In this document: one piece after another, positions 12,037-48,479 of the stretch
How positions within the stretch are numbered: position 1 is the stretch's first letter
Layout: every line of letters starts with the position of its first letter
NCBI RefSeq assembly: GCF_055900595.2
Contig: NZ_CM148325.1
Reading direction: 5' to 3' (one strand)
DNA length: 64,000 nt
The notes under the pieces: model-generated
Database searches by the model: none
What the model saw: only the letters and a program-made list of their open reading frames with translations
Told to the model about the DNA's origin: nothing
Program-made: the position numbers and the translations under genes

Positions 12037-12040
12037 CTCA

Positions 12041-15358: not shown

Positions 15359-15395
15359 ATAATAAAATTATCACTCATGTTCTTACTGAAAAAAA

Positions 15396-15656
15396 GTGAA
15401 TTCTATAGCAGAGAAATATTGTAAAATGTATAATCTTAATAGCTCGTTAGCATACCAAATCACGGCTATTAAATTTCTTCCTGATGGTATGAAATCATTC
15501 GGCCTTGATGTTCCATTATGGATGGTCGTCAGAGATGTTAACGGTTGGGATGATATGGAAATTACGATTTTTATTTGTGACAAAAATAGTGAAGTTCTTT
15601 GTTGCAGTAATATTTGGTATCCAGTATATCGTCCTCATCAAGCAGATTTGTTATAA
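15396..15656 (+). CDS. Hypothetical small protein (86 codons, GTG start) in AT-rich insert
   Basis: ORF-track frame MNSIAEKYCKMYNLNSSLAYQITAIKFLPDGMKSF...; no recognisable family; codon usage atypical; could be a second immunity-type gene or non-coding. Confidence 0.3.
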   Translation: MNSIAEKYCKMYNLNSSLAYQITAIKFLPDGMKSFGLDVPLWMVVRDVNGWDDMEITIFICDKNSEVLCCSNIWYPVYRPHQADLL

Positions 15657-15701
15657 GCACGTAAGGAGTACCGCCCTTGCTATTTTTCAGAATTCATAAA
15701 G

Positions 15702-15734
15702 AAAAAACCCGGCGCTAAATGCTTACCGGGTTTT
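15702..15734. terminator. Bidirectional intrinsic terminator downstream of hrpA (and of the insert ORFs)
   Basis: AAAAAACCCGG-cgctaaatgcttac-CCGGGTTTT, A-tract / hairpin / T-tract. Confidence 0.65.
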
Positions 15735-15758
15735 AGATTTATCAGGCAAATAGCAGCG

Positions 15759-20520: not shown

Positions 20521-23584
<3,064 letters not shown>

Positions 23585-23599
23585 TTTCTCTATTTTCCT

Positions 23600-24496
23600 T
23601 CAGTAACAGCAGTAGCGAATAAAATAAAAAAATACCGGAGCGGTGAAAATTAATGAGTCAATCCTGTCAAGGAGTCCGCCATGTCCTGGTAATAGTTTTC
23701 CACTATCTTTAACACCAATATCTTGTTTGATGGCTGACATCACTACATCGCCGCAAAAACCACTAATACCAATTAACAAACCCGCTAATAATGCCTGTAA
23801 TGTATCTAGCGGTGTCAGCAACGGTCCAATAATCAGTGACGCAATCATGGTGGTGATTACGCCGCCCATCAGACCTTCCAATGTTTTTCCCGGGCTGACT
23901 TTGGGGACCACTTTTCTTCTGCCGCAGGATTTTCCCCATAAATACTGTGCAATATCGTTTGACTCGGTTAATGCCAAAAGAAATAACACCAGTAACGCCC
24001 CGCCCTGGATATTTGTGGTTGGCAACATTAATAACCAGGCGGCATGACTCAAGGCGAAAACGGTCATTATCCAGCCCCAAAAAATGGCGCTCACGGTATG
24101 CAGAAAACCGGAGGGGTCACCCACTAAAACTCGCCAAGTGGCTAATATCAGAAACCCAGCCAAAGGTATAAATAACAGAAACAGCTCAAAGCAATTAAAA
24201 CCGATAAGAAAATAGTTAAGAGGAATACCCCAATATAACCAACGCGGAAAATGTACAGATATAAGCGTACAATATTCTTTCAATGCCAGAAAACTTATCA
24301 GCGCAAAAAACGTCAACGTCATCCAGCGTGGACCTGAAATGACCAGTGAAAAACAAATGACGATGCCCCACCAGGTACGAATACGTAATGTAACTTCATC
24401 TCCTTTTCTCTCCGGTAACCGCCATACCAGAAAACGGTTTATCAGCGTTGCTAAAATTAACAACACGAAAAGTATTGCCAGAGATTTTTCCAGCAT
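23600..24496 (-). CDS. ynbB: YnbB, CDP-diglyceride synthetase (CdsA)-like membrane protein
   Basis: 298 aa polytopic membrane protein with CTP-transferase-like C-terminus. Confidence 0.85.
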   Translation of the reverse strand: MLEKSLAILFVLLILATLINRFLVWRLPERKGDEVTLRIRTWWGIVICFSLVISGPRWMTLTFFALISFLALKEYCTLISVHFPRWLYWGIPLNYFLIGFNCFELFLLFIPLAGFLILATWRVLVGDPSGFLHTVSAIFWGWIMTVFALSHAAWLLMLPTTNIQGGALLVLFLLALTESNDIAQYLWGKSCGRRKVVPKVSPGKTLEGLMGGVITTMIASLIIGPLLTPLDTLQALLAGLLIGISGFCGDVVMSAIKQDIGVKDSGKLLPGHGGLLDRIDSLIFTAPVFFYFIRYCCY

Positions 24497-25101
24497 TACT
24501 TTTCAGCGCTCATAAGGAGCACGCTTCGACAACGATTAATCGCAGTCCAGAGAAGCAGAATTGAAGCAATGCTCCATAAAAGATTATTCCATTGCATCCA
24601 CTGTGGATAAATGGCAACGGCCAGCCCCCACAAACCAAATATTAACGCACGATCGCTTTTGCCAAATGGACCGGCATAACTGCGAATACCGTTAATCGTC
24701 TGCGCGAGTAAACCGCAAAACTCAGTCAATATGGTGCAAAATAACATGAGTATTACGAGTGATGCGTTACTTTCCGGTAAAAATAAAAACGGTAAATAAA
24801 GCGCAATATCGGAAATAACATCGCCAGTTTCATTCAAAATCGCCCCAAGACGTGTTTGCTGATTACACTCACGCGCCATCATGCCATCCAGCGCATTGAG
24901 TGCCATACGGACAAAAAGCACGATGGGCAATAGCAAAAAGAGGATGGGTCGTGCCACCAACATCAACAGCAATCCGGTAAGAAGAGAAAGCGCCAGTGCA
25001 GCAAGAGTGATGTGATTCGCTGTAACATGGTGCTTATAAAGCCAAAACATCGTCGGCCTTAACAGCGACTGAAAGAGCGGTTTTATCTGGTAGAGCGTCA
25101 T
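24496..25101 (-). CDS. ynbA: YnbA, CDP-alcohol phosphatidyltransferase family
   Basis: ORF 24496..25107; D-G-x2-A-R...G-x3-D-x3-D-like motif (ALDGMMARE...GDVISD); start probably MTLYQIK at 25101. Confidence 0.85.
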   Translation of the reverse strand: MTLYQIKPLFQSLLRPTMFWLYKHHVTANHITLAALALSLLTGLLLMLVARPILFLLLPIVLFVRMALNALDGMMARECNQQTRLGAILNETGDVISDIALYLPFLFLPESNASLVILMLFCTILTEFCGLLAQTINGIRSYAGPFGKSDRALIFGLWGLAVAIYPQWMQWNNLLWSIASILLLWTAINRCRSVLLMSAEK

Positions 25102-25271
25102 TATCAATCCTTGATAATTCGGTTTGCGCTATGGTGCATCAATTCCCCTGACGGAGATATCGCAACACGCCGCTTCATTAAAAATTCAGAATATATCAAG
25201 GTATTGGGGACTCACCGTCAGGAATGATTATCCCCAATAGATCAAGTGGTTAAAAATTATTACGCTGTTAT

Positions 25272-27578
25272 TCAATACAACTCATCAAGTTTTCTCATCG
25301 CTTGTTCCCGTATTGCGCGCGTCTTACCGTTAAGCGCCAGCTGCCGAACTAAATCCAGTTCAGGGTTAACAAGCTCTAACGCCAGCAAAGGATCACGTTT
25401 CAGCCTCGCCTTCAATACATCAACTGGAAAGCGGGGATTATTCATCGCCACAATCCACCACTCGGGATCAATTTCTGCCGCCAGTGCCGCAGGGGGGGTG
25501 TGGCGGTTGCTAAGTGCGCCGAACTTGAAAAATGTGAGATTGCTTTTCGCCAGTGTACTCCACCATATACGATCCGGTTGTTTTGCCAGTACATCCAGTT
25601 GTGCTAACGCATCGGGGTCGAGTGCATAATAAACACGTAACGCTTCGTTAACCTGCGCACGGGAACTGTTTTCCTGCCTCAGAAAAAACTTCGCCCAAAT
25701 ATCATTGCATGGCGTGTTTTGCTGTAATTCCTTGAGAACAACAGCGGGTAAATTATCCCAACTAATTAATGCACTCTCTAAAAAGTCCCAGTCGTCCGAA
25801 CGTATCAGAGAGGTGGCATTTAATAGCATCTGGTCATCAACTTCACCGTAGCTGATAAGCTCAGACAAAATCATATCAGCGCTGGTTTCATATGCATCTG
25901 AATCTGCTTTGGGATTATTTTTCCGATGCGATAAAGCACGTTGCCAAATTTTTTGTTTCATCGACGTGCTCAGATACTGATTTTTCGCCAGATTACTCCA
26001 CCCCTCAGGATCGTTGAAACGTGTCAATAACCGTTGTAGAGCAGCGTCAGAGTGAATTTCCTGCATATCCCGACAGCAAAAGTAGGCAGGGGATTTTTTC
26101 TCCATCCTTTTAACAAAATTAAACTGTAAGTTATCTGGCAATGCTAAAAATAACACACGTATTAGATCATCGTCATTCTCGAATTTTTGGTATAAATATA
26201 CTGCAACTTTGTCACTCTCTTGTGGCGTCATCCGCAACAATTGACCATGGTGTTTCATCTCTGCCAGCTTTGACGCTAAGCTTGTGACAACATCGTTTGA
26301 TGAATCGTTCGCCAACTGCATTGCCTGATTGTAGGTGAGTTGTCCTCCAGCACCGACCTGACGAATAGAGGGATCATCACTGCGGATATAGCCATCAATA
26401 ATGGATTCGGGCAATAACCACGCATCTTTATAAAGCTCCTGAATGATCATATCCCAATCTCTTTTCGCCAGAGTCATGACGATATCCAGAGGGAGATTTT
26501 CACGTAGCGCAAGATTCAACGGACCGACACCATCAGGTAGATGACTCATTCGCGTCATTATTTCGACAGAGAGCGGTTCACGGTCGAGCAACCCCAGAAC
26601 AACAGGCTGGTAACCCAATTGCTGATCGGTCAACTCCAGAATCTCATTGTCAGGCATATATCTCGCCATACTTTCAATCGTTTGTCCATCATTGCTATTA
26701 ATAAGTTGTTTGCGTAGGTTAGCTGAAATTCCTTTAATCCTTGGGAGAGTTCGCATTATGGCAAGATCAAATGTCGCAATATCTCGTCCTTCAAATGCAG
26801 CAACGTTGCCTTCATCCAGCATTTGCAATTCCTGCACTAACTCAGGAGAAGGCTTAGGGCGAAACAGCGCTTCTTTTTTCATCAGACTACAGATATTCCC
26901 TGCCATGGGAATATTGCTTCGCTTAAAAATTTCTTTCAGAGCATCTTCATCATTTATTAGACCCCAATAATATGCATCAGGATTTATTATCATCAGCGCT
27001 TTTTTGACATTTTCAGTGTCATTTTTGTCACTCGCACGGACCATGAATTCACTATTTGTCGAAGACGCAACAACAGGTGCAATTATGTCATTGATAAATA
27101 TCCCTCGCGCATTAATACTCCCCTTAATCGTAGACGGATTATCGTAATATGAGTCGATAAATACCAGTCCACTTGCATTTATCGAACCGGTAATTAACAG
27201 TGGTGAATCCGTAACTATATTCGTTGCCGTCACGTTACCGAGAATAACCCATGGATTAGAAAGAGATAAAGTGGAAATATTACCTTTGACTGTCAAATTG
27301 CCAAGAACAATCAATTTTTGATTACTCTCTATATTACCGTCTACCACTAAATCGCCACGATGCACTTTCCAGTCCGATGCAGATAAACCGAAGGGGACAA
27401 GGTTCACGCTACTGTTGATAGCTTGTTCAACTTGTTGTTTATCTTCAGCGGTAGCCGCAGAAAAAAATGGTTCAATATCAACTGCATTTGCAACACATCG
27501 AAGGTCCGCCTGTACTGGAAGACTCAGCATAAACAGGGGAAGTAAACCTATCCAGCTGCAAATCCTGGGCTTAAACAT
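25272..27578 (-). CDS. ydbD: YdbD, large secreted/periplasmic protein of unknown function
   Basis: ORF 25272..27584 (770 aa) with N-terminal signal peptide; conserved upstream partner of ynbABCD. Confidence 0.85.
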   Translation of the reverse strand: MFKPRICSWIGLLPLFMLSLPVQADLRCVANAVDIEPFFSAATAEDKQQVEQAINSSVNLVPFGLSASDWKVHRGDLVVDGNIESNQKLIVLGNLTVKGNISTLSLSNPWVILGNVTATNIVTDSPLLITGSINASGLVFIDSYYDNPSTIKGSINARGIFINDIIAPVVASSTNSEFMVRASDKNDTENVKKALMIINPDAYYWGLINDEDALKEIFKRSNIPMAGNICSLMKKEALFRPKPSPELVQELQMLDEGNVAAFEGRDIATFDLAIMRTLPRIKGISANLRKQLINSNDGQTIESMARYMPDNEILELTDQQLGYQPVVLGLLDREPLSVEIMTRMSHLPDGVGPLNLALRENLPLDIVMTLAKRDWDMIIQELYKDAWLLPESIIDGYIRSDDPSIRQVGAGGQLTYNQAMQLANDSSNDVVTSLASKLAEMKHHGQLLRMTPQESDKVAVYLYQKFENDDDLIRVLFLALPDNLQFNFVKRMEKKSPAYFCCRDMQEIHSDAALQRLLTRFNDPEGWSNLAKNQYLSTSMKQKIWQRALSHRKNNPKADSDAYETSADMILSELISYGEVDDQMLLNATSLIRSDDWDFLESALISWDNLPAVVLKELQQNTPCNDIWAKFFLRQENSSRAQVNEALRVYYALDPDALAQLDVLAKQPDRIWWSTLAKSNLTFFKFGALSNRHTPPAALAAEIDPEWWIVAMNNPRFPVDVLKARLKRDPLLALELVNPELDLVRQLALNGKTRAIREQAMRKLDELY

Positions 27579-27641
27579 ATGCACTCCATGCCATTAAAAA
27601 AGAAACAAAAGGGAAATGCATCTTTCCCTTTTGTATATTCG

Positions 27642-28502
27642 TTATTCTCGCGAAATACCGTCCAACGTAGACAACACGTCCGCAGAAAGATGCAATTTTT
27701 CTGAGGCCATATTCTCCCGTAAATGAGCAACAGAAGACGTTCCTGGGATCAGCAAAATATTCGGTGAACGTTGTAACAGCCACGCCAGCGCCACCTGCAT
27801 TGGTGTTGCACCCAGGCTCGCAGCAACATCGGAAAGCGTGGAGGATTGCAGCGGCGTAAAGCCCCCGAGCGGAAAGAACGGCACGTAGGCAATGCCGTCA
27901 CGAGCCAAAGCATCAATCATTGCGTCATCAGCACGATGAGCAATGTTGTATTCGTTCTGCACACAGACAATTTCGGTAATCTTACGCGCCTCTGCAACCT
28001 GCGTCGGTGTGACGTTGCTCAGGCCAATATGTTTTACCAGGCCTTGTTGTCGCATCTCTGCCAGCACGGTCAGGCTGGCTTCAATCGATCCTTCCGCTGG
28101 GCCATGACCATCCCCCATCATAACGCGCAGGTTAACCACATCCAGTACGTCCAGTCCGAGATTACGTAGATTATCGTGTACCGCTTTTTGCAACTCTGCC
28201 GGAGAAAATGCGGGCAACCAGGAGGCGTCCTCTCCACGCCGCGCCCCAATTTTAGTAACAATGGTCAGGTCGTCAGAGTAAGGATAAAGCGCTTCGCGGA
28301 TAATCTGATTGGTGACGTGCGGACCATAAAAGTCACTGGTATCAATGTGATTGACGCCCAATGCTAGCGCCTCGCGCAGAACGGTTATAGCGACGTGGCG
28401 ATCTCTGGGCGGGCCGAAAACCCCAGGACCTGCCAGTTGCATCGCGCCATAACCAAGACGGTTAACGGATTTTGTACCGAGAGTAAATGTGTTGCTGCTC
28501 AT
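27642..28502 (-). CDS. pdxI: Aldo-keto reductase, pyridoxine 4-dehydrogenase PdxI (YdbC)
   Basis: 286 aa AKR family protein. Confidence 0.9.
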   Translation of the reverse strand: MSSNTFTLGTKSVNRLGYGAMQLAGPGVFGPPRDRHVAITVLREALALGVNHIDTSDFYGPHVTNQIIREALYPYSDDLTIVTKIGARRGEDASWLPAFSPAELQKAVHDNLRNLGLDVLDVVNLRVMMGDGHGPAEGSIEASLTVLAEMRQQGLVKHIGLSNVTPTQVAEARKITEIVCVQNEYNIAHRADDAMIDALARDGIAYVPFFPLGGFTPLQSSTLSDVAASLGATPMQVALAWLLQRSPNILLIPGTSSVAHLRENMASEKLHLSADVLSTLDGISRE

Positions 28503-28632
28503 CGCACCCTGCCCTGTAATAAAACGAATTCAGAAAAATCAGTATAGAAATGAAAAGAGATAAATAATGCGAAGGCGTAAACAAGATTACTGGATGAGTT
28601 GCTCTATTGTCCTGAAAAACACCAAAACAAAA

Positions 28633-28655
28633 CGCGTCAAGCGCCGCATCCGGCA
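28633..28655. repeat. REP (repetitive extragenic palindrome) element
   Basis: GCGTCAAGCGCCGCATCCGGCAA, typical E. coli REP consensus. Confidence 0.6.
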
Positions 28656-28690
28656 ATAAAAAACCGCAACCTGTATCAGCGTTGCGGTTT
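28655..28690 (-). terminator. Intrinsic terminator of ydbA
   Basis: On minus strand AACCGCAAC-loop-GTTGCGGTT followed by TTTTTTATT, 20 nt after the ydbA stop. Confidence 0.7.
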
Positions 28691-28709
28691 ATGCATCACA
28701 TACTAAAAA

Positions 28710-31700
28710 TTAGAACGTTTTCTTGAAGTTCAGCATCACGCCTTTATCGCTGATACCATCCTCTTTCCAGTGGTAAGCATCCAGATTCAGCGAACTTTCT
28801 TTGCTGCTGTACTTCACGCCGACGCTTGCCAGACTGTTGATGCCGCCGCCCTTTTGCCCATCATCGACATTAAAGTGCTGGCTGCCTGCGCCTGCCAGGC
28901 TTGCCGTGCGCTGGCTCTTGCTGTAGCTGAGGTTCGGCCCACCTTCCAGCGCGGCGTTCGCACTCCAGCCGTCTTTGCCTGCGTAGTCCAGCTTCAGCCC
29001 AACGATGCTGTCCACCGCCGTTTCGCTGCCGCTGTTCATGCTCAGGTTAAAGTCTCCGGCATTGCGCTCCTGATAGTCGCCTTCCAGCATGTGACGCAGT
29101 TTCAGACCCGCATATGGCGTGATTTTCAGCCCTTCGCGCGGTTCAAAGGTTTTCGCCCCTTCGCTACGGAACTCCAGGTACTGTTGTTTCACATTCGTGT
29201 CTGCCGTCTTACTGATGTCGCCGTAAGCCACCGAACGGCTGCTGTCCAGTTGGTGAATATCGTAACGCAGCGCGTTATTCCAGCTCATACCGTTGTCAAA
29301 GGACATCTGATGCTTCAGGCCAAAGAACTGGCTGTAGCCGCCTGTAACACCATTATCACCCGCTTTCTGCGCACCGTCGCCGTCCAGACGGGCGATACCG
29401 TACTCCAGGCTCATGGTCTGGTTTTCGCTCAGGTCGAGGGTTTTACGCAGCGCCAGCATGTCGTACTCGGTATTGTTACCCAGCTCAGCACGCGGATCGC
29501 CTTTCGCCACCACGTTAAATGCCAGAGCGTTGCCCATCTTCGGTGCGGCGTCTGCCAGCATACTAAAGCGATTGCTTAACACACGCGCTTCGCGGAATAC
29601 CGTGGTCGCCTGGCTACCGCTAATTTGCTTAAGTGCGCTGTTCAGCTCTGCAGTGGTGCCGACGTTCAGACTGGTATACAGCTCATTGTTGGTGTAACCC
29701 GCATCCAGCGCTTTTGCCACGTCATTCACTGAGGCATCCGTCGCCACATCGGTGTAGGCTTTTTTGCTCATGGTCACGTCAACGTTGCCGCTGGCGTCGG
29801 TACTGCCTGTCGCCTGCCAGACAACAGATGTCGAAGTGATCGCTTGCGCATCGGTCAGGTTGCTGCCTTGCACCACATCATCAAAGCTGGCGGTTTTGTC
29901 CGCCGTTCCCGCCGCAAAAGCAGTGTTGATCTCCACGCCTTTCATACTGGCGTTATTGACCATCAGCTTACCAGCGCTACCATCGGCGTTCGTCCCCACC
30001 ACGTAACCATTGAGGTTGTTCATGCCATCGTTGCGGCTAACGGAAGAAGAATGACTGTCGTCGTATGGCGTAATGGTGGGTTCTTCCGGCGCGGTAAAGT
30101 CGACATAGTGTACTTCCGTACCGTCTCCCCCTTCACCACTGCCCTCCATCACCGTGCCAGATTGTTTAATTAATCCGGAACCATTCACGCTGTCGTCAAT
30201 ATAAACAGTGCCGTTGTTAACAATATGACCATTGCTCCCGAGCTTGCTGAAGGCATATGAATTGCTGGCATATATATTGATGGTGCCGTTATTCTCAATC
30301 ACCGCATCAGCCGTGGCATCGGACTCCAGTTGCATCCCTATCATGCCTGTCCTGCTGGTTCCTTGCGTGCCAACGTTTATGGTGCCGTTGTTGATCATTT
30401 TGGCTTTACCGTGCGCCGACATCGCCACATTACTATTTTTGTCGATATTAATAATGCCGTCGTTTATTGCCTTGCTGGCCGTGTTTGATGTCAGGATCTG
30501 CCCGTTGATGACGCCAGACTGGCCATTATAGAACGTATGCCCATCACCACCGGTGCTAATTCTCATGTCACCTTCAACTGTCCCCCAGTTATTAAAATGT
30601 CCTGTCCACAGCGCATTCGTCGCCACCGTTGCCACACCGCCTTCCAGATTGTTGAAGGTGCCACCTTTATCAACCGATGCGTTATGTACGGTACCAGCAT
30701 TATTGAAGGTAGAGGCTGCAGCAAAAGTTATTTTCTCTACTTTTCCACCGGCCTGATTATTCATTACGGCAGACCCGGAAGAACATTTCCAGGCATTCAC
30801 CGTTCCGGTGTTATAAAAACGGCTGGCCCACTGGTCAACCGTGTTGATGCTGCCTGAGTTGTGAATAATCGATCCTGCAACAGTCGTTCCGACTTGCCCG
30901 GTCACCATACCTTCGTTAGTGAACACTCCGCCATCCACAGAAACAGTTTTTGTCGTGCCGTGGTTGGTGTATTCCCCACCCGTTGCGATATCAACCTCAT
31001 TAATACTGCCCGTGGTTTCATTGACCAGATGACCAAAGTCAGCCACGGTGACAGGTCCCCCGGTGACCGTACCCGTGTTTGTTACCAGGGTTTCGGCGGT
31101 TGCCGTGATATCAGTAGTACCGCCATATGAAGACAGGTTAAGCGTTTCCCCGTCAGCCGTAATAATGTCACCATTTCTCCAGCTTAATGAAACAAACCCA
31201 TCAGTCGAGTTATAGGCGTTATTGTCCTGGCAAATACCAAAAGTACAGATGGTCCCGTAATTAACAATAGTCCCGCTGCCATCGTTATAGAACGCCTGCC
31301 CGTTTTCAGCATTAATATTGATGATGCCCGTCTGATCATTAATCGCAGTGGCACCATTGTAAACAGCCATGCCGACCAATTTATTTGGCCCCAGCGTATC
31401 ATCATCATTTTCATTTACTTCCAGATTTATAGTTCCCTGGTTAATAATAATGTTACCTGGCTTCATCGCAGCCATACCGGCACCGGAATTATAGAGTGTT
31501 ATTTCACCACCCTGCTGATTAATGGCGGTAGAATTAACGCTGGCACCAGAACTGTCTGTACCCACAGCCATCCCGACAGCATAATCTTTGGCGCTGTCAT
31601 GAGCGATATTGGACGCCAGACTGGAAGTATCGTTTTCATCAACCCATAATGCGTCAATGAAAATCTTACCCATATTGTCAATGGTTGAATTATTGGAGGC

Positions 31701-34202
31701 CAGCATGCCAACACTCCCCCGGCCGTACATTTGGATCTCACCGGCAGTATTATTTAAAGCGGTGCCATTGTTGCCTGCCGTCATCCCCGTCAGACTAATG
31801 ACTTGATTATTAAAAATTAAAGGGTCACTCAAACCTTGAGCGTTCAGACTATTGAAAATACGTCCCTGCGCGAGTACCTTACTGGTGATGGCACTGTTAT
31901 TAACAACTCGACCACCATAGACGCTCAAATACGCAGAACTAGCAGAGTCTGATGTATTCCCCTCTACGCCGTAGATAGAAATCGTTACGTTGTTATTATT
32001 TACAGCTAGCGACTCTTCACCAGTAGCCCTGGCAAAGCCAATATTACCCAGTTCTACATCACCATTATTTATCATCTGCGAACCGGAATTCACCAGTACA
32101 ACCTGTGATGTGTCACTATTATAATGATCAAATGTATTTATATCTTTTAGGATAAAAGTGGCGTTGCGGCCAAGTTCTAAATGGGCTCGGTTATTCAGTT
32201 GAATGATATCGCCTAATCCAAGCGGAAAAACACCACTGATTGTTGAATCCCCATTTAGATACAGAGTAGAGTGCCCATCGATTTTGATAACAGGCGTATC
32301 GCCATAACCATTACGTTTTAAAGCAGGTGTGGAGCCATCCTGTAGAGTATTTTCTTCGCCAGCTAAATGGATACCACCATTAATTTCGACGGTATTACCG
32401 TCACCCGACACAACCAGACCATTAATATTTTCCTGGCTGCCATCCATTTCATTATAGCTACGAGAAGTGACTTCACTGTCAGCAACAATGGTAAGATTGC
32501 CATTTAATACGATATTATTGTCGTGTCCCTGCACCTGAATGCCAACAGAAGGGGTAAAAAAGTCATTTATTGAATGCTCTCCGGCCTGATTTTTATCCAC
32601 CAGAATATTACCGGTAATTTCAACTTCATTGCCATCACCGGCTACATTTACCCCTGTCGCAACACTGCCAGTCACATTAAGCTCATTTGTCGCCAGCGTC
32701 ATGGCGTTATTATTTCCAGACACATCCAGACCGGTTGAATAATCCCCTACATCCACACGGCCAGCCAGAGAAATCAGACCATCATCTCCAACGACGCGAA
32801 TCCCGGTACTGAAATTATTAGCAATGATGTCCCCCACATTGATAAGAGTAGAATGATTACCCTCAATCAGAATCCCTGTCGCATTGGCCTCTGAACTACC
32901 ATTACTGACGGAAATATCCCCCCTGTTAATGAACGTCGACGCATCACCACTGAGAGAAACACCCAGCGAATTTTCATCCACGACCGTTATATTGCCTTTA
33001 TTGCTGACGATCGCGCCATTACCCTCAACATCAATACCCCGTGCAGCATTGCTAACGTATAAATCCCCTTCCTGTATAACCGTCGCATTATTACCAACGA
33101 TTTTGCTGCCCGTTGAATTTTGCCCATCAACCGTCATATGTCCTTTATTATCGGTCCTGACATCATTACCGCTAATAACGGCCCCTATTCCGCCGTTATT
33201 GACAGTGGAGTCGCCAGTGTTATTTAAGATTGTACGATCGCCATTGACGATAACCGCCGTGCCAGCATCGACCACCGTCTGACCGTTATTATTGATGGTT
33301 ATATTATCGCCGGTCAGGATACCGACCACCGAATCTTCACCGACAGCCTCTGTTTTACCCTCGTTTGTCAGCGCAATGTTGTTACCATTAATCATCATCA
33401 CCGTGCCGCCATTCAGGGCCGTGTTACCGCCCTGGTCAGTGATAATCGCATCATTAACGGTAATTATTCTGCCCGTTGTTCCATCAGACACGACACTGGC
33501 TAACTGTGTGACGTGGAGTTTACCTTCGTCATCGTAGCGCCATTCCATATCACCTGTGGTACTCACACCACTAAAGATGGCGGTATGAGTCTCTTCATGG
33601 TTTTCCCACTCTGTCACAATGGTTTTTCGGCCATCTTTTGCCGACAGCGTGTAGCTACCATCGACATTCTGTATATAGGTGAACGTTGCCCCGCGAATCT
33701 TCAGGGTTTGCGCGTCCTTGTCCCATGTCACATTGTTATCAAAGACAACGGGTTCTGTTCTCGGTAGGTCAACATCATCACCGCTATTGTCGGGTGGAAT
33801 AACATTACCGCCGTTATCTGGCTTTACAGGTATACCTGAATCTTCATCACTGGGAACGGGTAGCGGTAGAGGGCCATTATCATCTGGCGGTATGGGCTGG
33901 GGAAAAGAAGAGTGAGCAGAATGATCATTGTCATGAGACAATTCAATCACTGCGAGTGTTGCCAGTACCGCCGTGGCACCTAATGCCAGTAACGAGCTGA
34001 AACCATTATTTGTAACAACAGCACATTTTTCTGGCACTGTTTTCAACTTCGTTGACGGTCGGGCGTGCCCTTCTGACTGACATGTCATTTGAGAGCTTCT
34101 GCGCATACTGTCTGCACTCTCGCCTTCTGTTATTTCCGCCCCCCAGCTTTGGCCACTTAACGCTATAGCGATACACGCTGATAATAACGTTTTCTTTTGC
34201 AT
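28710..34202 (-). CDS. ydbA: YdbA autotransporter (type Va) with long beta-helical repetitive passenger and C-terminal beta-barrel, uninterrupted
   Basis: 1830 aa single ORF; signal peptide; Pro-rich linker; many degenerate ~20-aa Gly/Asn/Thr/Val-rich repeats (NNGTINV...-type); C-terminal barrel ending ...MLNFKKTF. Confidence 0.88.
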   Translation of the reverse strand: MQKKTLLSACIAIALSGQSWGAEITEGESADSMRRSSQMTCQSEGHARPSTKLKTVPEKCAVVTNNGFSSLLALGATAVLATLAVIELSHDNDHSAHSSFPQPIPPDDNGPLPLPVPSDEDSGIPVKPDNGGNVIPPDNSGDDVDLPRTEPVVFDNNVTWDKDAQTLKIRGATFTYIQNVDGSYTLSAKDGRKTIVTEWENHEETHTAIFSGVSTTGDMEWRYDDEGKLHVTQLASVVSDGTTGRIITVNDAIITDQGGNTALNGGTVMMINGNNIALTNEGKTEAVGEDSVVGILTGDNITINNNGQTVVDAGTAVIVNGDRTILNNTGDSTVNNGGIGAVISGNDVRTDNKGHMTVDGQNSTGSKIVGNNATVIQEGDLYVSNAARGIDVEGNGAIVSNKGNITVVDENSLGVSLSGDASTFINRGDISVSNGSSEANATGILIEGNHSTLINVGDIIANNFSTGIRVVGDDGLISLAGRVDVGDYSTGLDVSGNNNAMTLATNELNVTGSVATGVNVAGDGNEVEITGNILVDKNQAGEHSINDFFTPSVGIQVQGHDNNIVLNGNLTIVADSEVTSRSYNEMDGSQENINGLVVSGDGNTVEINGGIHLAGEENTLQDGSTPALKRNGYGDTPVIKIDGHSTLYLNGDSTISGVFPLGLGDIIQLNNRAHLELGRNATFILKDINTFDHYNSDTSQVVLVNSGSQMINNGDVELGNIGFARATGEESLAVNNNNVTISIYGVEGNTSDSASSAYLSVYGGRVVNNSAITSKVLAQGRIFNSLNAQGLSDPLIFNNQVISLTGMTAGNNGTALNNTAGEIQMYGRGSVGMLASNNSTIDNMGKIFIDALWVDENDTSSLASNIAHDSAKDYAVGMAVGTDSSGASVNSTAINQQGGEITLYNSGAGMAAMKPGNIIINQGTINLEVNENDDDTLGPNKLVGMAVYNGATAINDQTGIININAENGQAFYNDGSGTIVNYGTICTFGICQDNNAYNSTDGFVSLSWRNGDIITADGETLNLSSYGGTTDITATAETLVTNTGTVTGGPVTVADFGHLVNETTGSINEVDIATGGEYTNHGTTKTVSVDGGVFTNEGMVTGQVGTTVAGSIIHNSGSINTVDQWASRFYNTGTVNAWKCSSGSAVMNNQAGGKVEKITFAAASTFNNAGTVHNASVDKGGTFNNLEGGVATVATNALWTGHFNNWGTVEGDMRISTGGDGHTFYNGQSGVINGQILTSNTASKAINDGIINIDKNSNVAMSAHGKAKMINNGTINVGTQGTSRTGMIGMQLESDATADAVIENNGTINIYASNSYAFSKLGSNGHIVNNGTVYIDDSVNGSGLIKQSGTVMEGSGEGGDGTEVHYVDFTAPEEPTITPYDDSHSSSVSRNDGMNNLNGYVVGTNADGSAGKLMVNNASMKGVEINTAFAAGTADKTASFDDVVQGSNLTDAQAITSTSVVWQATGSTDASGNVDVTMSKKAYTDVATDASVNDVAKALDAGYTNNELYTSLNVGTTAELNSALKQISGSQATTVFREARVLSNRFSMLADAAPKMGNALAFNVVAKGDPRAELGNNTEYDMLALRKTLDLSENQTMSLEYGIARLDGDGAQKAGDNGVTGGYSQFFGLKHQMSFDNGMSWNNALRYDIHQLDSSRSVAYGDISKTADTNVKQQYLEFRSEGAKTFEPREGLKITPYAGLKLRHMLEGDYQERNAGDFNLSMNSGSETAVDSIVGLKLDYAGKDGWSANAALEGGPNLSYSKSQRTASLAGAGSQHFNVDDGQKGGGINSLASVGVKYSSKESSLNLDAYHWKEDGISDKGVMLNFKKTF

Positions 34203-34848
34203 GAGAAATCCTTTTCAATGAATGACATTTCAAATAATAAAATATGAGTAATAGATAAGAAATAGCCACAGGCTGTGTCATGATTTAATGTCTGCTCTTG
34301 AAATTTTATTTAGCAATCCCAGAACATTCAACTTAATTAGTATTTCGAAACCTCAATGTAGACACATAAAAAACAAATTATTCGATTACTTAGGCTATTT
34401 GTTGCATTATTACACATCCTCTAACAATAATCAGACAAAAAGCAATGTCAGCGTCAAATTGGGTAGCTGATTCATATTACTGACCACTCCGGAAATTCAT
34501 TCATCGTGAAAATATTAACATTTCAACCATGTTCCATTTAATCAACCCACTGAAAATCTGGAGGTTATCTACTGCGGTTTGTTGTTGACTGCCCCTGACA
34601 GGTTTACCAGGCGTTGACAGAAGATGAGGCTTGCAAGATGCTAAAAACAATGTGGTGTTACAAGCAATCCCATAAACCTCGTAACTTCACTGAAATGAGC
34701 GATGCCGTCCATATTTGGGTTGACTATAAAAACCCTTAATATTGAGGTTGATGATGATATTCATGATGGCATTGGAAAAATAGGACACCCATAAAATATC
34801 TATACAGCCTTTAAATTAAATCATTGAAATATCGCTGTTGCATAGTGC

Positions 34849-35172
34849 TTATTTTTGCAACCATTTCCCGTTAATTCCCTGCACATATTCCCCCGGTTTG
34901 GCCCGAGCTACAAGCTTTTGCCCGGCGAGTTTCGCGATATCATCTACCGAGACATTATTTTGCTTTGCCAGTTGTTGGTAACTCACTTTACGTGCGGCAT
35001 TAATCTCGGTTACTAATTTCTCTGTTTCAGCATCCGTTTTCAACGCAACCAAATAACCGTTAAATGTTTCACCTACCCGCCCCTGGGTTCTGGCCTCGTC
35101 CAGTGTTAATGCCACTACATTGCTGCTTACCAGTCCAACAAGAAACGCACAAAGAAGTAATGTTTTCTTCAT
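34849..35172 (-). CDS. ydbL: YdbL (DUF1318) periplasmic protein
   Basis: ORF 34849..35253; canonical start MKKTLLLCAFLVGLVSSNVVA (signal peptide) at 35172. Confidence 0.88.
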   Translation of the reverse strand: MKKTLLLCAFLVGLVSSNVVALTLDEARTQGRVGETFNGYLVALKTDAETEKLVTEINAARKVSYQQLAKQNNVSVDDIAKLAGQKLVARAKPGEYVQGINGKWLQK

Positions 35173-35179
35173 CATCCCC

Positions 35180-35365
35180 TCAGAAAAGATCGCTACGGGT
35201 TTTGAGTAAATCTTCGACATCTTTGTCTGCCTTAATGATGATCTCATGCTCAATTTTAACGTTCATATTGATAGTGATCGGTTCCTTAGGTGCAGCGACT
35301 TCAATGCGAGGCGTACAGCCAACCAGCATAAAAGATGACGTCAACGCAGCCAGTAAAATTTTCAT
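35180..35365 (-). CDS. ynbE: Lipoprotein YnbE
   Basis: 61 aa with lipobox LVGC; overlaps ydbH stop by 4 nt. Confidence 0.88.
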   Translation of the reverse strand: MKILLAALTSSFMLVGCTPRIEVAAPKEPITINMNVKIEHEIIIKADKDVEDLLKTRSDLF

Positions 35366-38001
35366 TGTTTTTCCTCACACCCTTTTCCTTGCGGACAGCC
35401 ATTTTCCGGCAGACGCGCGTTCTGCTCCAACCATGCCTGGAGATTATCGCCAAAGCGTAAACTGCGCCACAGGGTAAAAATATTCTCTTCATGATGGTAA
35501 TTAAGGTTTACCGTACCACTTTTACCGTCGACGCGACTGGTACCTGTAATATTGGCCTGCATGGTTAACACACCGAGATTATCTAAATTAATTTTTGTCG
35601 ATGAACGGCTAATTTCCATATAGCGCAACCAGTTAATCGCAGAACCCGCGGTCATATTGTCTTTCACCACCGCATCTGCGGTGTCTTTATCCAGCCGCAA
35701 GGTCATTGGTCCGCTATTTGCCAGCCAGCCGTCTTTAACTATCCATTTTTCATTGTTCAGCCATAAAGGCAATGCCCCACTAAATGCCCCGGACATGGCG
35801 AATTGTTTCGGATTGACGGCGCTAACCAGTTCGCTGGATGAGAGGTTATTCAGCCGCAACAGCGCCGGGTCATGTTGCGGCATGCGTAATTGTTTCATCA
35901 GCACGTTACCGCCTAACACATCGACGCTAACATCGGTCAACAACAATGGTTCGTCTTCACTCCACGGATAACGCCCTTGCAAGTCAGCCGTAATATTTTT
36001 CGCTGTCACCAGATTAATCACTTCGGCAATTCGCAACGTAACGGGGCCGCGAGTCCCCAGATGCCAGGCTCCATCGGCAAAACGGAAAGGCAGGACAAAA
36101 TCGACACCGTTGACCTGATTATCTGGCATCCAGGCACTACCGCCTTTCAACACACCGTGCCCTCCCGCGCGGAATCCTTGTTCAGGCGCAGCAGAAAATG
36201 CGACCTGGGCATATAGTTCGCCATCGCGTAAGTTCATCTTCCAGTCGGGTGGCACCAGCGGCTGGAATACGGTCAGTGATTGTTTAGGCCACCAGGCGTT
36301 ACCGCGCAGACGAATACCGTCCCAGCGACCATTTACCCGAACCGGGCCAATCTCACCAGCATGTAAATCGCCTTTAAAGAGGAAATACGTCGGATCGCGT
36401 CCATCGACGCTAAATTTTAAGGTTGATGGCGGTAACACACTGCCGCCAGTGAACAGCGTTTGCCCGGCGTCCAGTGACAGCGCGCCGCTAAAGGAGGGAT
36501 GCTGTGCGTCACGTACCCAGACGACGGGCTTGTCGAGAATCAATCGCGGCTTTTCTACCGTCATTGTCCCGTATTGCAATTTGTCAAAGCCGGTGGAGAG
36601 ATCGGTCAGCGTAATCGTGCTGTCACGCCACTCACCTTTTCCTGCGACATCCCAACTGGCGTGCATTGGGGTAAAACTGCCCTTGCCCCAGTAGCGCCAC
36701 TGCCAGCGGCCAGCGTCAGGGAGAAAATCATCCGCCAGTCCATCCATATGCAGCACGAAATCGCCCAGTTCATTTTCATGCGCCTGCAAAATGGCCTGCA
36801 AACGTCCGTCAACACCACGTTGAGTGACTTTTACACCCGCTAAAGGCCAGCGGATTTCATCGATGTCCAGCGAATCGATGACTCTTCCCTTCGAACGTAA
36901 TAACGCGCCTGGCTCAAAGGCCAGCGTTGGGTCAGTCAGACTTCCGCTTAGCTGCGCAGGTAAACGGGCATATAAAATGAGGTCCGCCTGTTTCGCTTCA
37001 CCGGTCAGTTGCATAGGCAGCTGGCTGTTATCCATGCTAAATTTTCCTGGGCCAAAATTAAGCACCGCGTTGCCCTTACCCGCTTGCCCCTGGGTCAGCA
37101 CACTCAGTCGTCCGCTGACCAGAGCATTCTCAAGCCCTGCCTGCCAGTTGTCGACTTTGACACCCAGTCGTCCACTCAAAGGAAAACCTGCATACGGCCA
37201 GCTCCAGCGACCATCGCTTACGGTCAATTGTTGGCGAGTAATTTGCCACGGCAGATCGAGCAACGGATCGCCGTTATCCCGTGCCAGCACAATCAATTGC
37301 CCGCTATTTTCCTGCCAGTCCAGCTCGGCATCCACCAGTGAAGGCTCCTGCGGCAAGTTTAACGTCGCAGTAGCATGACCCCTTACAGGAAGTCCATCCG
37401 GCACTAGCGGCATAGTAAATTCCCCCACCAGTTTAACCGGCGGCTGATTTTCAAACGCAGCGACATCCAGTTCGCTGACTGTAAGTTGTTGCCCTTTCAG
37501 CTGGCCTTGAAATTTAACTTTTTCGCCCTGATAACGCAGTTGCTGGATATCGGAGTTTAATGCGAGAGAGAGTTTTCCCTGCCATTCCTGCCAGGGAGAA
37601 AAAATCAGTTTATCGATATTGATCCAGGTGTTAGGCAACATGGCCTGCCACTGCGCGAGGGTTTTTGGAGCGGCTGGCGATTGCTCCGTCTGCGGCAATT
37701 TCGCCAGACAAGCAGAATCAAGTTCTACCGTGCCGACGTTCAATAACCAGCGGCTGGGATGAGAAAGGCTGGCGTTTGTGATATGTGCAAGCTGACAATC
37801 TCCTACCAGATAACGGAGATCGGGAATGATTAAACCTTTACGCGTAATGCGTGGGCTTTCATCTAAAGCAATACGTGTGCCGAGCGGTAGCCAGATGCCC
37901 GCCAGCGTGGGAACCCACAACCCGAGCGTCATCAGTAGCGTCAACGGCACAAGAATAATCAGTAATAACAGCGCGAGAACGGCTTTATATTTACCCAACA
38001 T
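35362..38001 (-). CDS. ydbH: AsmA-like family protein YdbH (putative envelope lipid transport)
   Basis: 879 aa, N-terminal membrane anchor, long beta-rich body; forms ydbH-ynbE-ydbL operon. Confidence 0.9.
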   Translation of the reverse strand: MLGKYKAVLALLLLIILVPLTLLMTLGLWVPTLAGIWLPLGTRIALDESPRITRKGLIIPDLRYLVGDCQLAHITNASLSHPSRWLLNVGTVELDSACLAKLPQTEQSPAAPKTLAQWQAMLPNTWINIDKLIFSPWQEWQGKLSLALNSDIQQLRYQGEKVKFQGQLKGQQLTVSELDVAAFENQPPVKLVGEFTMPLVPDGLPVRGHATATLNLPQEPSLVDAELDWQENSGQLIVLARDNGDPLLDLPWQITRQQLTVSDGRWSWPYAGFPLSGRLGVKVDNWQAGLENALVSGRLSVLTQGQAGKGNAVLNFGPGKFSMDNSQLPMQLTGEAKQADLILYARLPAQLSGSLTDPTLAFEPGALLRSKGRVIDSLDIDEIRWPLAGVKVTQRGVDGRLQAILQAHENELGDFVLHMDGLADDFLPDAGRWQWRYWGKGSFTPMHASWDVAGKGEWRDSTITLTDLSTGFDKLQYGTMTVEKPRLILDKPVVWVRDAQHPSFSGALSLDAGQTLFTGGSVLPPSTLKFSVDGRDPTYFLFKGDLHAGEIGPVRVNGRWDGIRLRGNAWWPKQSLTVFQPLVPPDWKMNLRDGELYAQVAFSAAPEQGFRAGGHGVLKGGSAWMPDNQVNGVDFVLPFRFADGAWHLGTRGPVTLRIAEVINLVTAKNITADLQGRYPWSEDEPLLLTDVSVDVLGGNVLMKQLRMPQHDPALLRLNNLSSSELVSAVNPKQFAMSGAFSGALPLWLNNEKWIVKDGWLANSGPMTLRLDKDTADAVVKDNMTAGSAINWLRYMEISRSSTKINLDNLGVLTMQANITGTSRVDGKSGTVNLNYHHEENIFTLWRSLRFGDNLQAWLEQNARLPENGCPQGKGCEEKQ

Positions 38002-38208
38002 GGGTAGTTAATATCCTGATTTAGCGAAAAATTAAGCATTCAATACGGGTATTGTGGCATGTTTAACCGTTCAGTTGAAGGTTGCGCCTACACTAAGCAT
38101 AGTTGTTGATGAATTTTTCAATATCGCCATAGCTTTCAATTATATTTGAAATTTTGTAAAATATTTTTAGTAGCTTAAATGTGATTCAACATCACTGGAG
38201 AAAGTCTT

Positions 38209-39198
38209 ATGAAACTCGCCGTTTATAGCACAAAACAGTACGACAAGAAGTACCTGCAACAGGTGAACGAGTCCTTTGGCTTTGAGCTGGAATTTTTTGA
38301 CTTTCTGCTGACGGAAAAAACCGCTAAAACGGCCAATGGCTGCGAAGCGGTATGTATTTTCGTAAACGATGACGGCAGCCGCCCGGTGCTGGAAGAACTG
38401 AAAAAGCACGGCGTTAAATATATCGCCCTGCGCTGTGCCGGTTTCAATAACGTCGACCTTGACGCAGCAAAAGAACTGGGGCTGAAAGTAGTCCGTGTTC
38501 CAGCCTATGATCCAGAAGCCGTTGCTGAACACGCCATCGGTATGATGATGACGCTGAACCGCCGTATCCATCGCGCATATCAGCGTACGCGTGACGCCAA
38601 CTTCTCTCTGGAAGGTCTGACCGGCTTTACCATGTATGGCAAAACGGCAGGCGTTATCGGTACTGGTAAAATCGGTGTGGCGATGCTGCGCATTCTCAAA
38701 GGTTTTGGTATGCGTCTGCTGGCGTTCGATCCGTATCCAAGTGCGGCGGCGCTGGAACTCGGTGTGGAGTATGTCGATCTGCCAACCCTGTTCTCTGAAT
38801 CAGACGTTATCTCTCTGCACTGCCCGCTGACACCGGAAAACTACCATCTGTTGAACGAAGCCGCCTTCGATCAGATGAAAAATGGCGTGATGATCGTCAA
38901 TACCAGTCGCGGTGCATTGATTGATTCTCAGGCGGCAATTGAAGCGCTGAAAAATCAGAAAATTGGTTCGTTGGGTATGGACGTGTATGAAAACGAACGC
39001 GATCTGTTCTTTGAAGATAAATCCAACGACGTAATCCAGGATGACGTATTCCGTCGACTGTCTGCCTGCCACAACGTGCTGTTTACCGGGCACCAGGCAT
39101 TCCTGACAGCAGAAGCTCTGACCAGTATTTCCCAAACTACCCTGCAAAACTTAAGCAATCTGGAAAAAGGCGAAACCTGCCCGAACGAACTGGTTTAA
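38209..39198 (+). CDS. ldhA: Fermentative D-lactate dehydrogenase LdhA
   Basis: 329 aa D-isomer 2-hydroxyacid dehydrogenase, NAD motif GVIGTGKIG. Confidence 0.95.
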   Translation: MKLAVYSTKQYDKKYLQQVNESFGFELEFFDFLLTEKTAKTANGCEAVCIFVNDDGSRPVLEELKKHGVKYIALRCAGFNNVDLDAAKELGLKVVRVPAYDPEAVAEHAIGMMMTLNRRIHRAYQRTRDANFSLEGLTGFTMYGKTAGVIGTGKIGVAMLRILKGFGMRLLAFDPYPSAAALELGVEYVDLPTLFSESDVISLHCPLTPENYHLLNEAAFDQMKNGVMIVNTSRGALIDSQAAIEALKNQKIGSLGMDVYENERDLFFEDKSNDVIQDDVFRRLSACHNVLFTGHQAFLTAEALTSISQTTLQNLSNLEKGETCPNELV

Positions 39199-46041: not shown

Positions 46042-46977
46042 ATGTCGCAAAATCAAGAAATTAGTAAGAAAGAACAATACAACCTGAACAAATTACAAAA
46101 ACGTCTGCGTCGTAACGTGGGCGAAGCCATTGCTGACTTCAATATGATTGAAGAAGGCGATCGCATCATGGTTTGCCTCTCCGGGGGTAAAGACAGCTAT
46201 ACCATGCTGGAGATTCTGCGCAATTTGCAGCAAAGCGCTCCAATCAATTTTTCGCTGGTGGCTGTTAACCTCGATCAAAAGCAACCGGGCTTCCCGGAAC
46301 ACGTTCTGCCCGAGTATCTTGAAAAGCTGGGCATTGAGTACAAGATTGTGGAAGAGAACACTTACGGTATCGTGAAAGAGAAGATTCCGGAGGGCAAAAC
46401 CACTTGCTCACTGTGTTCTCGTCTTCGTCGCGGAATTCTTTACCGTACCGCAACGGAACTGGGAGCGACGAAGATCGCGCTGGGTCACCATCGTGACGAT
46501 ATCCTGCAAACGCTGTTCTTAAATATGTTCTATGGCGGCAAGATGAAAGGTATGCCACCGAAACTGATGAGCGATGATGGCAAACATATTGTGATTCGTC
46601 CGCTGGCCTACTGTCGCGAGAAAGATATTCAACGCTTTGCCGATGCAAAAGCGTTCCCGATTATTCCGTGCAACCTGTGCGGTTCACAGCCTAACCTGCA
46701 ACGTCAGGTGATTGCTGACATGTTGCGTGACTGGGATAAACGTTATCCGGGGCGTATCGAGACGATGTTCAGCGCGATGCAGAATGTGGTGCCGTCGCAT
46801 CTGTGCGATACCAACCTGTTCGATTTCAAAGGCATTACCCACGGTTCTGAAGTGGTTAACGGGGGTGATCTGGCGTTTGATCGCGAAGAGATCCCTCTAC
46901 AACCGGCGGGTTGGCAGCCTGAAGAAGATGAAAATCAGTTGGATGAGTTACGACTGAATGTGGTTGAAGTGAAATAA
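46042..46977 (+). CDS. ttcA: tRNA 2-thiocytidine(32) synthetase TtcA
   Basis: 311 aa, PP-loop SGGKDS and CxxC Fe-S motifs. Confidence 0.93.
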
Positions 46978-47024
46978 CCCGGATAGCGCCCGATGCGCAA
47001 GCTTATCGGGCTACTCTTATGGAG

Positions 47025-47057
47025 GCCGGATAAGACGCGGCCAGCGTCGCATCCGGC
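47025..47057. repeat. REP element downstream of ttcA/dbpA
   Basis: GCCGGATAAGACGCGGCCAGCGTCGCATCCGGC palindromic unit. Confidence 0.65.
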
Positions 47058-47105
47058 AATCCCGAAGAAGATGTTTACTCTTGCACCCTGCGATTCAACA
47101 TTTCA

Positions 47106-48479
47106 TTATTTTAATAACCGCACCCGGCACGTTTTTCCTTTAATCTTCCCGCCCTGTAACTGTTTCCATGCTTTATGAGCAACAGCCTGACGCACCGCAA
47201 CATAGACATGCGCCGGATGCACGGCGATTTTGCCAATATCTGCGCCATCAAGCCCGATATCTCCTGTCAGCGCACCTAATACATCACCCGGGCGCATTTT
47301 GGCTTTTTTCCCGCCATCGATACACAACGTTGCCATTTCTGCTTCCAGCGGCACAATGGAACTATTAACTGGCGGCGTTTGCCAGTTAAGTTTTATCTGC
47401 AACATGTCAGAAATGATATTGGCCCGCTGTGCTTCTTCCGGGGCACAGAAACTGATCGCCAGACCGCTATTTCCTGCACGCGCTGTACGACCGATGCGAT
47501 GTACATGAACTTCAGGATCCCACGCCAGTTCAAAGTTCACTACCAGCTCAAGCGATTTAATATCAAGACCACGCGCAGCAACATCCGTCGCGACCAGCAC
47601 ACGAGCGCTACCGTTAGCAAAACGTACCAGGGTCTGATCGCGGTCACGTTGCTCCAGATCGCCATGTAACGACAATGCACTTTGCCCTATGTCATTCAGC
47701 GCGTCGCAGACAGCCTGACAATCTTTTTTGGTATTGCAAAACACCACGCAAGAGGATGGCTGATGCAAACTTAATAACCGTTGCAACAGCGGAATTTTGC
47801 CTTTGCTGGATGTCTCATAAAATTGTTGTTCAATGGGAGGCAGAGCATCTGTTGAGTCAATTTCAATCGCCAATGGATCGCGTTGAACTCGTCCGCTGAT
47901 TGCGGTGATGGCTTCCGGCCAGGTTGCCGAAAACAGAAGCGTCTGTCGAGATGCTGGCGCAAAACGGATAACATCATCAATGGCATCGCTAAATCCCATA
48001 TCCAGCATGCGATCGGCTTCATCCATCACCAGCATATTCAACGCATCCAGTGATACCGTGCCTTTTTGCAGATGGTCCAGCAAACGACCTGGGGTTGCCA
48101 CGATAATATGCGGCGCATGTTGCAACGAATCACGCTGCATACCGAACGGTTGACCACCGCACAAAGTCAAAATTTTGGTATTTGGCAGAAAACGCGCCAG
48201 CCGACGCAATTCACCTGCCACCTGATCCGCCAGTTCACGCGTAGGACACAGCACTAAAGCCTGGGTCTGAAATAGCGACGCATCAATTTTCTGTAGCAGC
48301 CCGAGGCCAAAAGCCGCCGTTTTGCCGCTGCCGGTTTTCGCCTGCACGCGAACATCTTTTCCGGCAAGGATCGCCGGAAGCGCGGCGGCCTGCACCGGCG
48401 TCATAGTTAAATAACCCAACTCATTAAGGTTCGTGAGTTGGGCGGGAGGCAAAACATTCAGGGTAGAAAAAGCGGTCAC
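47106..48479 (-). CDS. dbpA: ATP-dependent RNA helicase DbpA (DEAD-box, 23S rRNA-specific)
   Basis: 457 aa; Q-motif, Walker A AKTGSGKT, DEAD box, C-terminal RNA-binding domain. Confidence 0.95.
   Translation of the reverse strand: MTAFSTLNVLPPAQLTNLNELGYLTMTPVQAAALPAILAGKDVRVQAKTGSGKTAAFGLGLLQKIDASLFQTQALVLCPTRELADQVAGELRRLARFLPNTKILTLCGGQPFGMQRDSLQHAPHIIVATPGRLLDHLQKGTVSLDALNMLVMDEADRMLDMGFSDAIDDVIRFAPASRQTLLFSATWPEAITAISGRVQRDPLAIEIDSTDALPPIEQQFYETSSKGKIPLLQRLLSLHQPSSCVVFCNTKKDCQAVCDALNDIGQSALSLHGDLEQRDRDQTLVRFANGSARVLVATDVAARGLDIKSLELVVNFELAWDPEVHVHRIGRTARAGNSGLAISFCAPEEAQRANIISDMLQIKLNWQTPPVNSSIVPLEAEMATLCIDGGKKAKMRPGDVLGALTGDIGLDGADIGKIAVHPAHVYVAVRQAVAHKAWKQLQGGKIKGKTCRVRLLK

Follow-up and report, generated by a model that had tools for sequence, protein, structure and literature searches.

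In Escherichia coli K-12 MG1655, the genes ydbL and ydbA are separated by 19,185 bp that hold, in this order, feaR-feaB-tynA-paaZ-paaA..K-paaX-paaY-ynbG. In the 64-kb stretch of DNA analysed here (64,000 nucleotides, referred to as the window), the same two genes are neighbors. The question raised by this locus is whether the cluster for phenylethylamine and phenylacetate catabolism was deleted from the strain, was never there, or lies elsewhere in the genome. A preliminary description of the window had given the K-12 gene order, with the reservation that ydbL and ydbA might turn out to be directly adjacent in the reference; the annotation of NC_000913, which places feaR to paaY plus ynbG between them, confirms that order and rules out the adjacency. 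The description had also reported that about 650 bp of AT-rich non-coding DNA lie between ydbA and ydbL. Its coordinates are right and the exact length is 646 bp (34203-34848), the list of open reading frames and the RefSeq annotation of NZ_CP098223.1 agreeing on the genes that bound this non-coding spacer; its GC content is 34.8% (about 65% A+T), compared with 48.7% for the whole window. The parts of the locus are the following.

27642-28502, minus strand: pdxI (ydbC), a conserved gene that follows ydbA; an open reading frame of 286 aa, named pdxI in a near-identical genome and 94.7% identical in nucleotides to K-12 pdxI.
28710-34202, minus strand: intact ydbA-family autotransporter gene, 1830 aa, 5493 bp; an open reading frame annotated as autotransporter or BigA/YdbA in 17 genomes.
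30393-34202, minus strand: hypervariable part of ydbA, approximately the first 1270 residues (passenger region), with patchy identity to K-12.
34203-34518, no strand: ydbA-side half of the spacer, with distant homology to strain SMS-3-5.
34519-34848, no strand: ydbL-side half of the spacer, 330 bp, without a detectable relative beyond the 17 genomes that share the junction.
34849-35175, minus strand: ydbL, encoding a DUF1318 protein of 108 aa (Pfam DUF1318, E = 9e-31), 92.9% identical in nucleotides to K-12.
35180-35365, minus strand: ynbE, encoding a 61-aa lipoprotein, from its open reading frame and the annotation of a near-identical genome.
35362-38001, minus strand: ydbH, 879 aa, the conserved flank; an open reading frame 95.9% identical in nucleotides to K-12.

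Beyond ydbL the window continues with ynbE, ydbH, ldhA and ydbK in order. The site is the same as that of the K-12 locus (b1384-b1400), and the flanks, namely ydbH-ynbE-ydbL, the 3' part of ydbA, pdxI and ydbD, are 93-97% identical between the two, whereas the window is without the 19,185-bp cluster and its spacer and passenger region are either unrelated to those of K-12 or 65-69% identical. The gene at 28710-34202 is the ydbA orthologue, as nucleotide identity to K-12 ydbA is 92.9% in its 3' third, and the K-12-like order of pdxI and ydbD (and ynbA-C) downstream also backs this assignment. Pfam finds BigA_N at residues 152-232 and BigA_beta at residues 1399-1482 of the 1830-aa product. Positions 22722-30392 of the window align to K-12 at 92.9% nucleotide identity, and positions 30393-34202 align in patches of 65-69% only; at the protein level the passenger region reaches 36-42% identity to its counterparts in K-12 and SMS-3-5, and the C-terminal part is conserved. 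A conserved C-terminus joined to a diverged N-terminal part is the pattern that would be expected of a diversifying surface protein. The homology to K-12 ends at the stop codon of ydbL and picks up again approximately 1270 codons into ydbA; thus, the missing cluster falls inside a larger hypervariable segment, which extends from the ydbL 3' end across the spacer and into the passenger region of ydbA and of which the genus has several allelic versions, deeply diverged from one another.

Two further observations concern the genes on either side of the spacer. The window carries ydbA as a whole open reading frame, compared with a K-12 pseudogene split by IS2 and IS30. Across the E. coli collection ydbL is unusually polymorphic, the ydbL-ynbE stretch being 90-95% identical to that of the window in 4756 genomes, 80-90% in 487 and 60-80% in 146; in the alignment to K-12, the divergence of ydbL grows toward its 3' end, with 86% identity in the last 50 nt.

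We searched the window with 18 proteins of the K-12 island using tblastn and found no gene for FeaR, FeaB, TynA, PaaZ, PaaA-K, PaaX or PaaY. The sole match in the window is the paralogue aldA, 33% identical to FeaB, and the remainder have E > 0.02; when the spacer was searched alone in the same way, all matches had E > 0.29. Decayed island genes within the spacer were considered and rejected, with tblastn at E <= 100 giving noise only. The absence of the cluster from the locus and from the window, as the preliminary description had claimed, is borne out by this search, in which the 18 proteins yield aldA and nothing else.

The spacer is found in 17 of the 5426 complete E. coli genomes, as a single chromosomal copy that always lies between ydbL and the autotransporter gene. 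This bears directly on the explanation that the missing 19 kb were collapsed or dropped during assembly. The 17 genomes were sequenced independently and have the same junction at 98-99.9% identity, so that we give an artefact practically no weight. The same genomes served, by proxy, for the check for paa genes elsewhere that had been proposed in the preliminary description. We used a chimeric query, composed of 1000 bp of junction-specific sequence and 400-bp markers from feaB, tynA, paaA and paaK, with which all 17 junction-sharing chromosomes ranked at the top, each with one matching place. Therefore, at the sensitivity of blastn, none of the 17 chromosomes carries a marker, a result that covers the chromosomes of these relatives, as their plasmids are separate records that are unlinked to strains. 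The cluster could also be present in the strain but moved to another place on the chromosome or to a plasmid, and a few paa matches are indeed found on plasmids in the E. coli collection (3 places with the paaA-K query and 12 with the marker query). However, no marker occurs on any chromosome with the junction, and among the 3171 genomes that contain the paa operon the median number of places is one, nearly all places being chromosomal, which makes relocation very improbable. Most likely, to judge from these comparisons, the fea-tynA-paa cluster is missing from the whole genome of the strain.

Which lineage the strain belongs to is suggested by its closest relatives. A near-identical genome, NZ_CP098223.1 (strain Z0117EC0005), is 99.96% identical over 25.7 kb and at least 99.9% identical over the remaining window. 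The window is without two IS copies of Z0117EC0005, which is otherwise 99.98% identical: an IS150 (~9567, near hokB) and an IS200/IS605 element (~2812-2817, near rimL), and the window strain is therefore a close relative of Z0117EC0005 but a separate strain. Among the 17 genomes with the junction, which come from different hosts and countries and have spacers 98.3-99.8% identical, EC42405 and 2013C-4282 have been named as complete genomes of Escherichia cryptic clade I (PMC10100065); their junctions are 99.5% and 98.3% identical to that of the window, respectively. Clade I status is thus backed by literature for two of the 17, and the other 15 are assigned from identity. At this one locus, two genes, ydbK and ydbH, were compared with strains that represent phylogroups A, B2, E and F; identity to the window is 94.8-96.8%, and the same strains reach 97.0-98.6% identity to K-12 in these genes. 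Over the flanking core genes the corresponding figures are about 96% to the window and 97-99.5% to K-12. These values therefore put the window a little beyond the limits of E. coli sensu stricto, where clade I is expected to fall. All complete genomes with clade-I-like ydbL flanks have the junction of the window. The one apparent exception, strain N96, was examined as a possible island-bearing clade I genome and rejected, since it carries the island together with a YdbL protein of the K-12 type and belongs to E. coli sensu stricto. The primers of the clade I PCR target (PMC10100065) are absent from the 64-kb window, the marker being located on a genomic island elsewhere. We consider it highly probable that the strain belongs to Escherichia cryptic clade I, that ydbL, 646 bp of spacer and ydbA form the normal, lineage-fixed, island-free haplotype of that clade, and that the cluster is absent; at NCBI, strains of clade I are carried under the E. 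coli label.

The preliminary description had offered two origins for the junction, an ancestral empty site or a deletion scar. When the spacer is aligned to the K-12 ydbL-feaR and paaY-ydbA borders, as had been suggested there, the common part is limited to the 11 nt before the ydbA ATG, corresponding to the ribosome-binding region, and apart from this and the end of ydbL nothing matches (blastn, word size 7). The K-12-type flanking spacers (171 bp between ydbL and feaR, 330 bp between paaY and ydbA) are not kept in the window, and truncated feaR, paaX, paaY or other island genes are not detectable at the junction by blastn or tblastn. There is no IS element or significant repeat at the junction, where short repeats are at chance level, and no tRNA gene in 27000-39000. 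The island of K-12 itself shows no marks of an integrative element: it is without an integrase, and the longest direct repeat across its borders, 11 nt, is insignificant beside shuffled sequences, in which the longest repeat averages 8.3 nt and reaches 13.

An authentic scar at the same site looks different. FDAARGOS_497, which probably belongs to phylogroup B2, resembles the window in having no functional fea-tynA-paa cluster at this site, but it keeps the K-12-type ydbL-feaR spacer (94%), then a fusion of 207 bp of feaR with 153 bp of paaX, an intact paaY and pdxI, and ydbA was lost there; the window has none of those remnants and has kept ydbA. The exact feaR-paaX junction of FDAARGOS_497 is present in 260 genomes, and one further genome has a deletion that extends from feaR to ynbC and was mediated by IS1. 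Genomes that retain at least a piece of feaR, paaX or paaY number 4194, and therefore approximately 890 genomes that lack the cluster carry remnants. A rule for the locus can be drawn from this: true deletions leave remnants of feaR, paaX or paaY, and island-free haplotypes like that of the window do not.

These observations can be set against the possibility that the window descends from a K-12-like ancestor that lost feaR to paaY at once, the 646 bp being what was left over. The region is deletion-prone in E. coli, as seen in the feaR'::'paaX junction, the IS1-mediated deletion, fusions of paaA and paaK and an IS3-mediated loss. Yet the spacer resembles neither flank of the K-12 island and contains no fragment of an island protein, no IS element, tRNA gene or significant repeat accompanies it, the same spacer recurs in the 17 genomes from various hosts and countries, and the adjoining 3' end of ydbL and passenger region of ydbA are deeply diverged from K-12. 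On these grounds a recent deletion scar is very unlikely and effectively refuted. Since no scar is seen and the arrangement is typical of the lineage, the empty-site half of the earlier alternative is favored at the level of the lineage and the scar half is dropped; the junction would be old, not the product of a recent deletion.

The spacer itself is a composite of two unlike halves. Window positions 34113-34518 align to positions 11961-12354 of the SMS-3-5 locus at 63% identity, and the two spacers are 61% identical over 322 nt. The ydbA-side half (34203-34518) is therefore an old ydbA upstream region, for which a promoter role can be proposed. The ydbL-side half (34519-34848) matches nothing in K-12, nor in any other E. 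coli haplotype or outgroup locus that was compared. The spacer has no match among 72,556 plasmids and 50,697 phages that would indicate a mobile-element origin, and no Rfam family at E <= 1. It folds no better than shuffled sequence (z-scores of -0.30 and +0.16), its open reading frames are short and unremarkable, and it has three promoter-like sites where 3.0 are expected, and no terminator. We also considered the ydbL-side 330 bp as a decayed tandem duplicate of ydbL, an idea prompted by an imperfect direct repeat of 23 nt (34521-34543 and 34855-34877, with a spacing of 334 nt, approximately one ydbL length) and by weak tblastn fragments. It was rejected, as an nhmmer profile of ydbL built from at least 30 loci found no match and hmmsearch scores were negative.

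The window belongs to a class of remnant-free, island-free haplotypes, which differ in the length of the spacer and in the ydbA-family gene as follows.

O157:H7 haplotype: spacer of 413 bp; ydbA-family gene split.
KK05-19 haplotype: spacer of 425 bp; ydbA-family gene of 1949 aa.
SMS-3-5 haplotype: spacer of 457 bp, in 47 genomes; ydbA-family gene of 1984 aa.
Window (clade I) haplotype: spacer of 646 bp, in 17 genomes; ydbA-family gene of 1830 aa.

The locus of SMS-3-5, which we take to belong to phylogroup F, is like that of the window in its layout and in approximately 316 bp of ydbA-side spacer plus the start of ydbA, which are homologous at 61-63% identity; it differs in the passenger region (about 42% protein identity), and the extra 330-bp ydbL-side segment belongs to the window. 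O157:H7, presumably of phylogroup E, and Escherichia sp. E1V33 likewise lack fea-paa genes, their ydbL being separated from a ydbA-family gene by about 413 bp of AT-rich DNA. Their spacer, unlike that of SMS-3-5, has no detectable similarity to that of the window, and the ydbL of O157 is approximately 80% identical to the window's.

Absence of the cluster is widespread. The genes paaA-K are present in 3171 of the 5426 complete E. coli genomes and absent from 2255 (42%); at least one of the feaB, tynA, paaA and paaK markers is found in ~3304 of them, and none of the four in ~2122. In some genomes the paaA and paaK markers are just ~1.3 kb apart, indicating an internal paaA-paaK deletion or fusion, and a paaA-paaK fusion has been reported (PMC4951805). 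The same study described the paa locus as a region of heterogeneity between ydbH-ynbE-ydbL and ynbC-ynbD-azoR, carried by ~80% of phylogroup A (PMC4951805). Elsewhere, no paa cluster was reported in the genomes of phylogroups B2 and E that one study covered (PMC5422975), its loss in E. coli B has been traced to an IS3 event (PMC3032704), and the locus has been associated positively with phylogroup B1 (PMC7314097) and also with bovine-adapted lineages (PMC6724679). Absence of the cluster is an ordinary and common difference among E. coli lineages that is already known, because the polymorphism has been published and the exact arrangement of the window is annotated in 17 RefSeq genomes.

The deeper history of the site is a separate matter, for which we compared the locus in other members of the genus and family. 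In E. albertii, ydbL adjoins pdxI. In E. whittamii, a spacer homologous to the E1V33/O157 type is followed by a relic of the ydbA 5' end of about 100 bp (positions 10717-10821 of the E. whittamii locus) and then by pdxI; this relic shows that ydbA was deleted there at a time when the island-free arrangement was already in place. Escherichia sp. E1V33 has ydbL, spacer and ydbA. Every non-coli Escherichia lineage in our sample, which consisted of E. albertii, E. whittamii, E1V33 and clade I and was without E. fergusonii, E. marmotae and E. ruysiae, is therefore devoid of the island at the site, and the island-free arrangement is old in the genus. Escherichia sp. MOD1-EC7003 was set aside as uninformative, since its ydbL is followed by 42 bp of K-12-type spacer, IS630-family fragments and the end of the contig. 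Outside the genus, Silvania has ydbL-feaR-feaB-tynA-paaZ-paaA exactly as in K-12, and Yokenella and 'Enterobacteriaceae bacterium 89' have ydbL-feaR-feaB. At four-fold degenerate sites, K-12 and those genera are 36-44% identical in island genes and 40-55% identical in the flanks ldhA and ydbH. The island is as saturated as its flanks, which makes the linkage equally old and speaks against a recent transfer.

These lines of evidence point in opposite directions. Parsimony within the genus argues for a gain: if clade I and the ancestor of Escherichia never had the cluster, the lack of the island from all the non-coli lineages sampled is accounted for by a single gain on the stem of E. coli sensu stricto, the most parsimonious history within the genus. 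The deep linkage argues for an island-bearing ancestor followed by losses or replacements. A true ancestral empty site is difficult to reconcile with the same ydbL-feaR-feaB(-tynA-paaZ-paaA) order in Silvania, Yokenella and a further genus of the Enterobacteriaceae, and with the saturation of the synonymous sites there, which speaks for old vertical linkage. At 51.5% GC, the K-12 island does not stand out from this region (48.7% in the window), and a gain at the exact site needs a donor with homologous flanks, that is, a relative that had kept the island. Because the same linkage exists in other genera and is as saturated as the flanks, we lean, by a modest preference, toward ancient loss or haplotype replacement in Escherichia, and regard a site that never held the cluster as the less probable history, though one with a real chance of being correct.

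How replacement might proceed is illustrated by O157:H7. In NZ_CP076243.1 (locus ~8226-9950), ~2.2-2.4 kb into ydbH, the sequence changes from 99-100% K-12-like to 98-100% identity with E1V33, and this near-identity runs through ynbE, ydbL, the 413-bp spacer (97.6%) and the start of ydbA. The DNA beside the shared segment is 86-90% identical to E1V33 only. This suggests that the island-free haplotype of O157:H7 was introgressed from an E1V33-like species of Escherichia, a hint that replacement of one allele by another can spread the loss of the paa cluster. The introgression-like haplotype of O157:H7 is the most interesting by-product of the analysis and is not a feature of the window. More tentatively, and with somewhat less than even confidence, we propose that the segment reaching from the ydbL 3' end to the passenger region of ydbA, spacer included, is an ancient cassette with many alleles, which homologous recombination carries from one Escherichia species to another, O157:H7 being the clearest case. 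On this view, the 'loss' of paa in some E. coli lineages would be replacement by a foreign island-free haplotype and not deletion, and the clade I haplotype would be one more such allele.

The window differs from K-12 in several other places. The gene gapC (10998-11999, plus strand) is an intact open reading frame of 333 codons, and the K-12 annotation gives a pseudogene. The gap between hrpA and ydcF (14474-15759) measures 1.3 kb compared with 272 bp in K-12 and contains an SMI1/KNR4-family gene (14864-15358, plus strand), an open reading frame of 76 aa (15426-15656, plus strand) and a gene fragment; it may be an orphan immunity-gene islet. The gene mpaA adjoins mppA (63560-63743), the intervening ymjC, ymjD, ycjY and pgrR of K-12 (~2.6 kb) being absent. 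Finally, ttcA directly adjoins dbpA (46042-48479), with no Rac prophage, which occupies 23 kb in K-12, and the same interval is also without the LT2-type prophage that is integrated in ttcA of some clade I strains (PMC10100065).

The absence of the cluster has a direct consequence for metabolism, as the strain is predicted to be unable to use phenylacetate or phenylethylamine by the K-12 route. It is a sound inference from the gene content that there would be no oxidation of 2-phenylethylamine (TynA, FeaB) and no degradation of phenylacetate (Paa) by that route, and the same inability probably extends to clade I in general. Within E. coli sensu stricto, the phenylethylamine/phenylacetate trait follows phylogroup and habitat. 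The finding made here matters little beyond annotation. The intact and strongly diverged ydbA allele, encoding a surface protein, may exceed the missing cluster in biological interest, and if the ydbL-spacer-ydbA segment is indeed a mobile cassette of old alleles, the 330-bp segment private to clade I could give lineage-specific control of this intact, adhesin-like gene.
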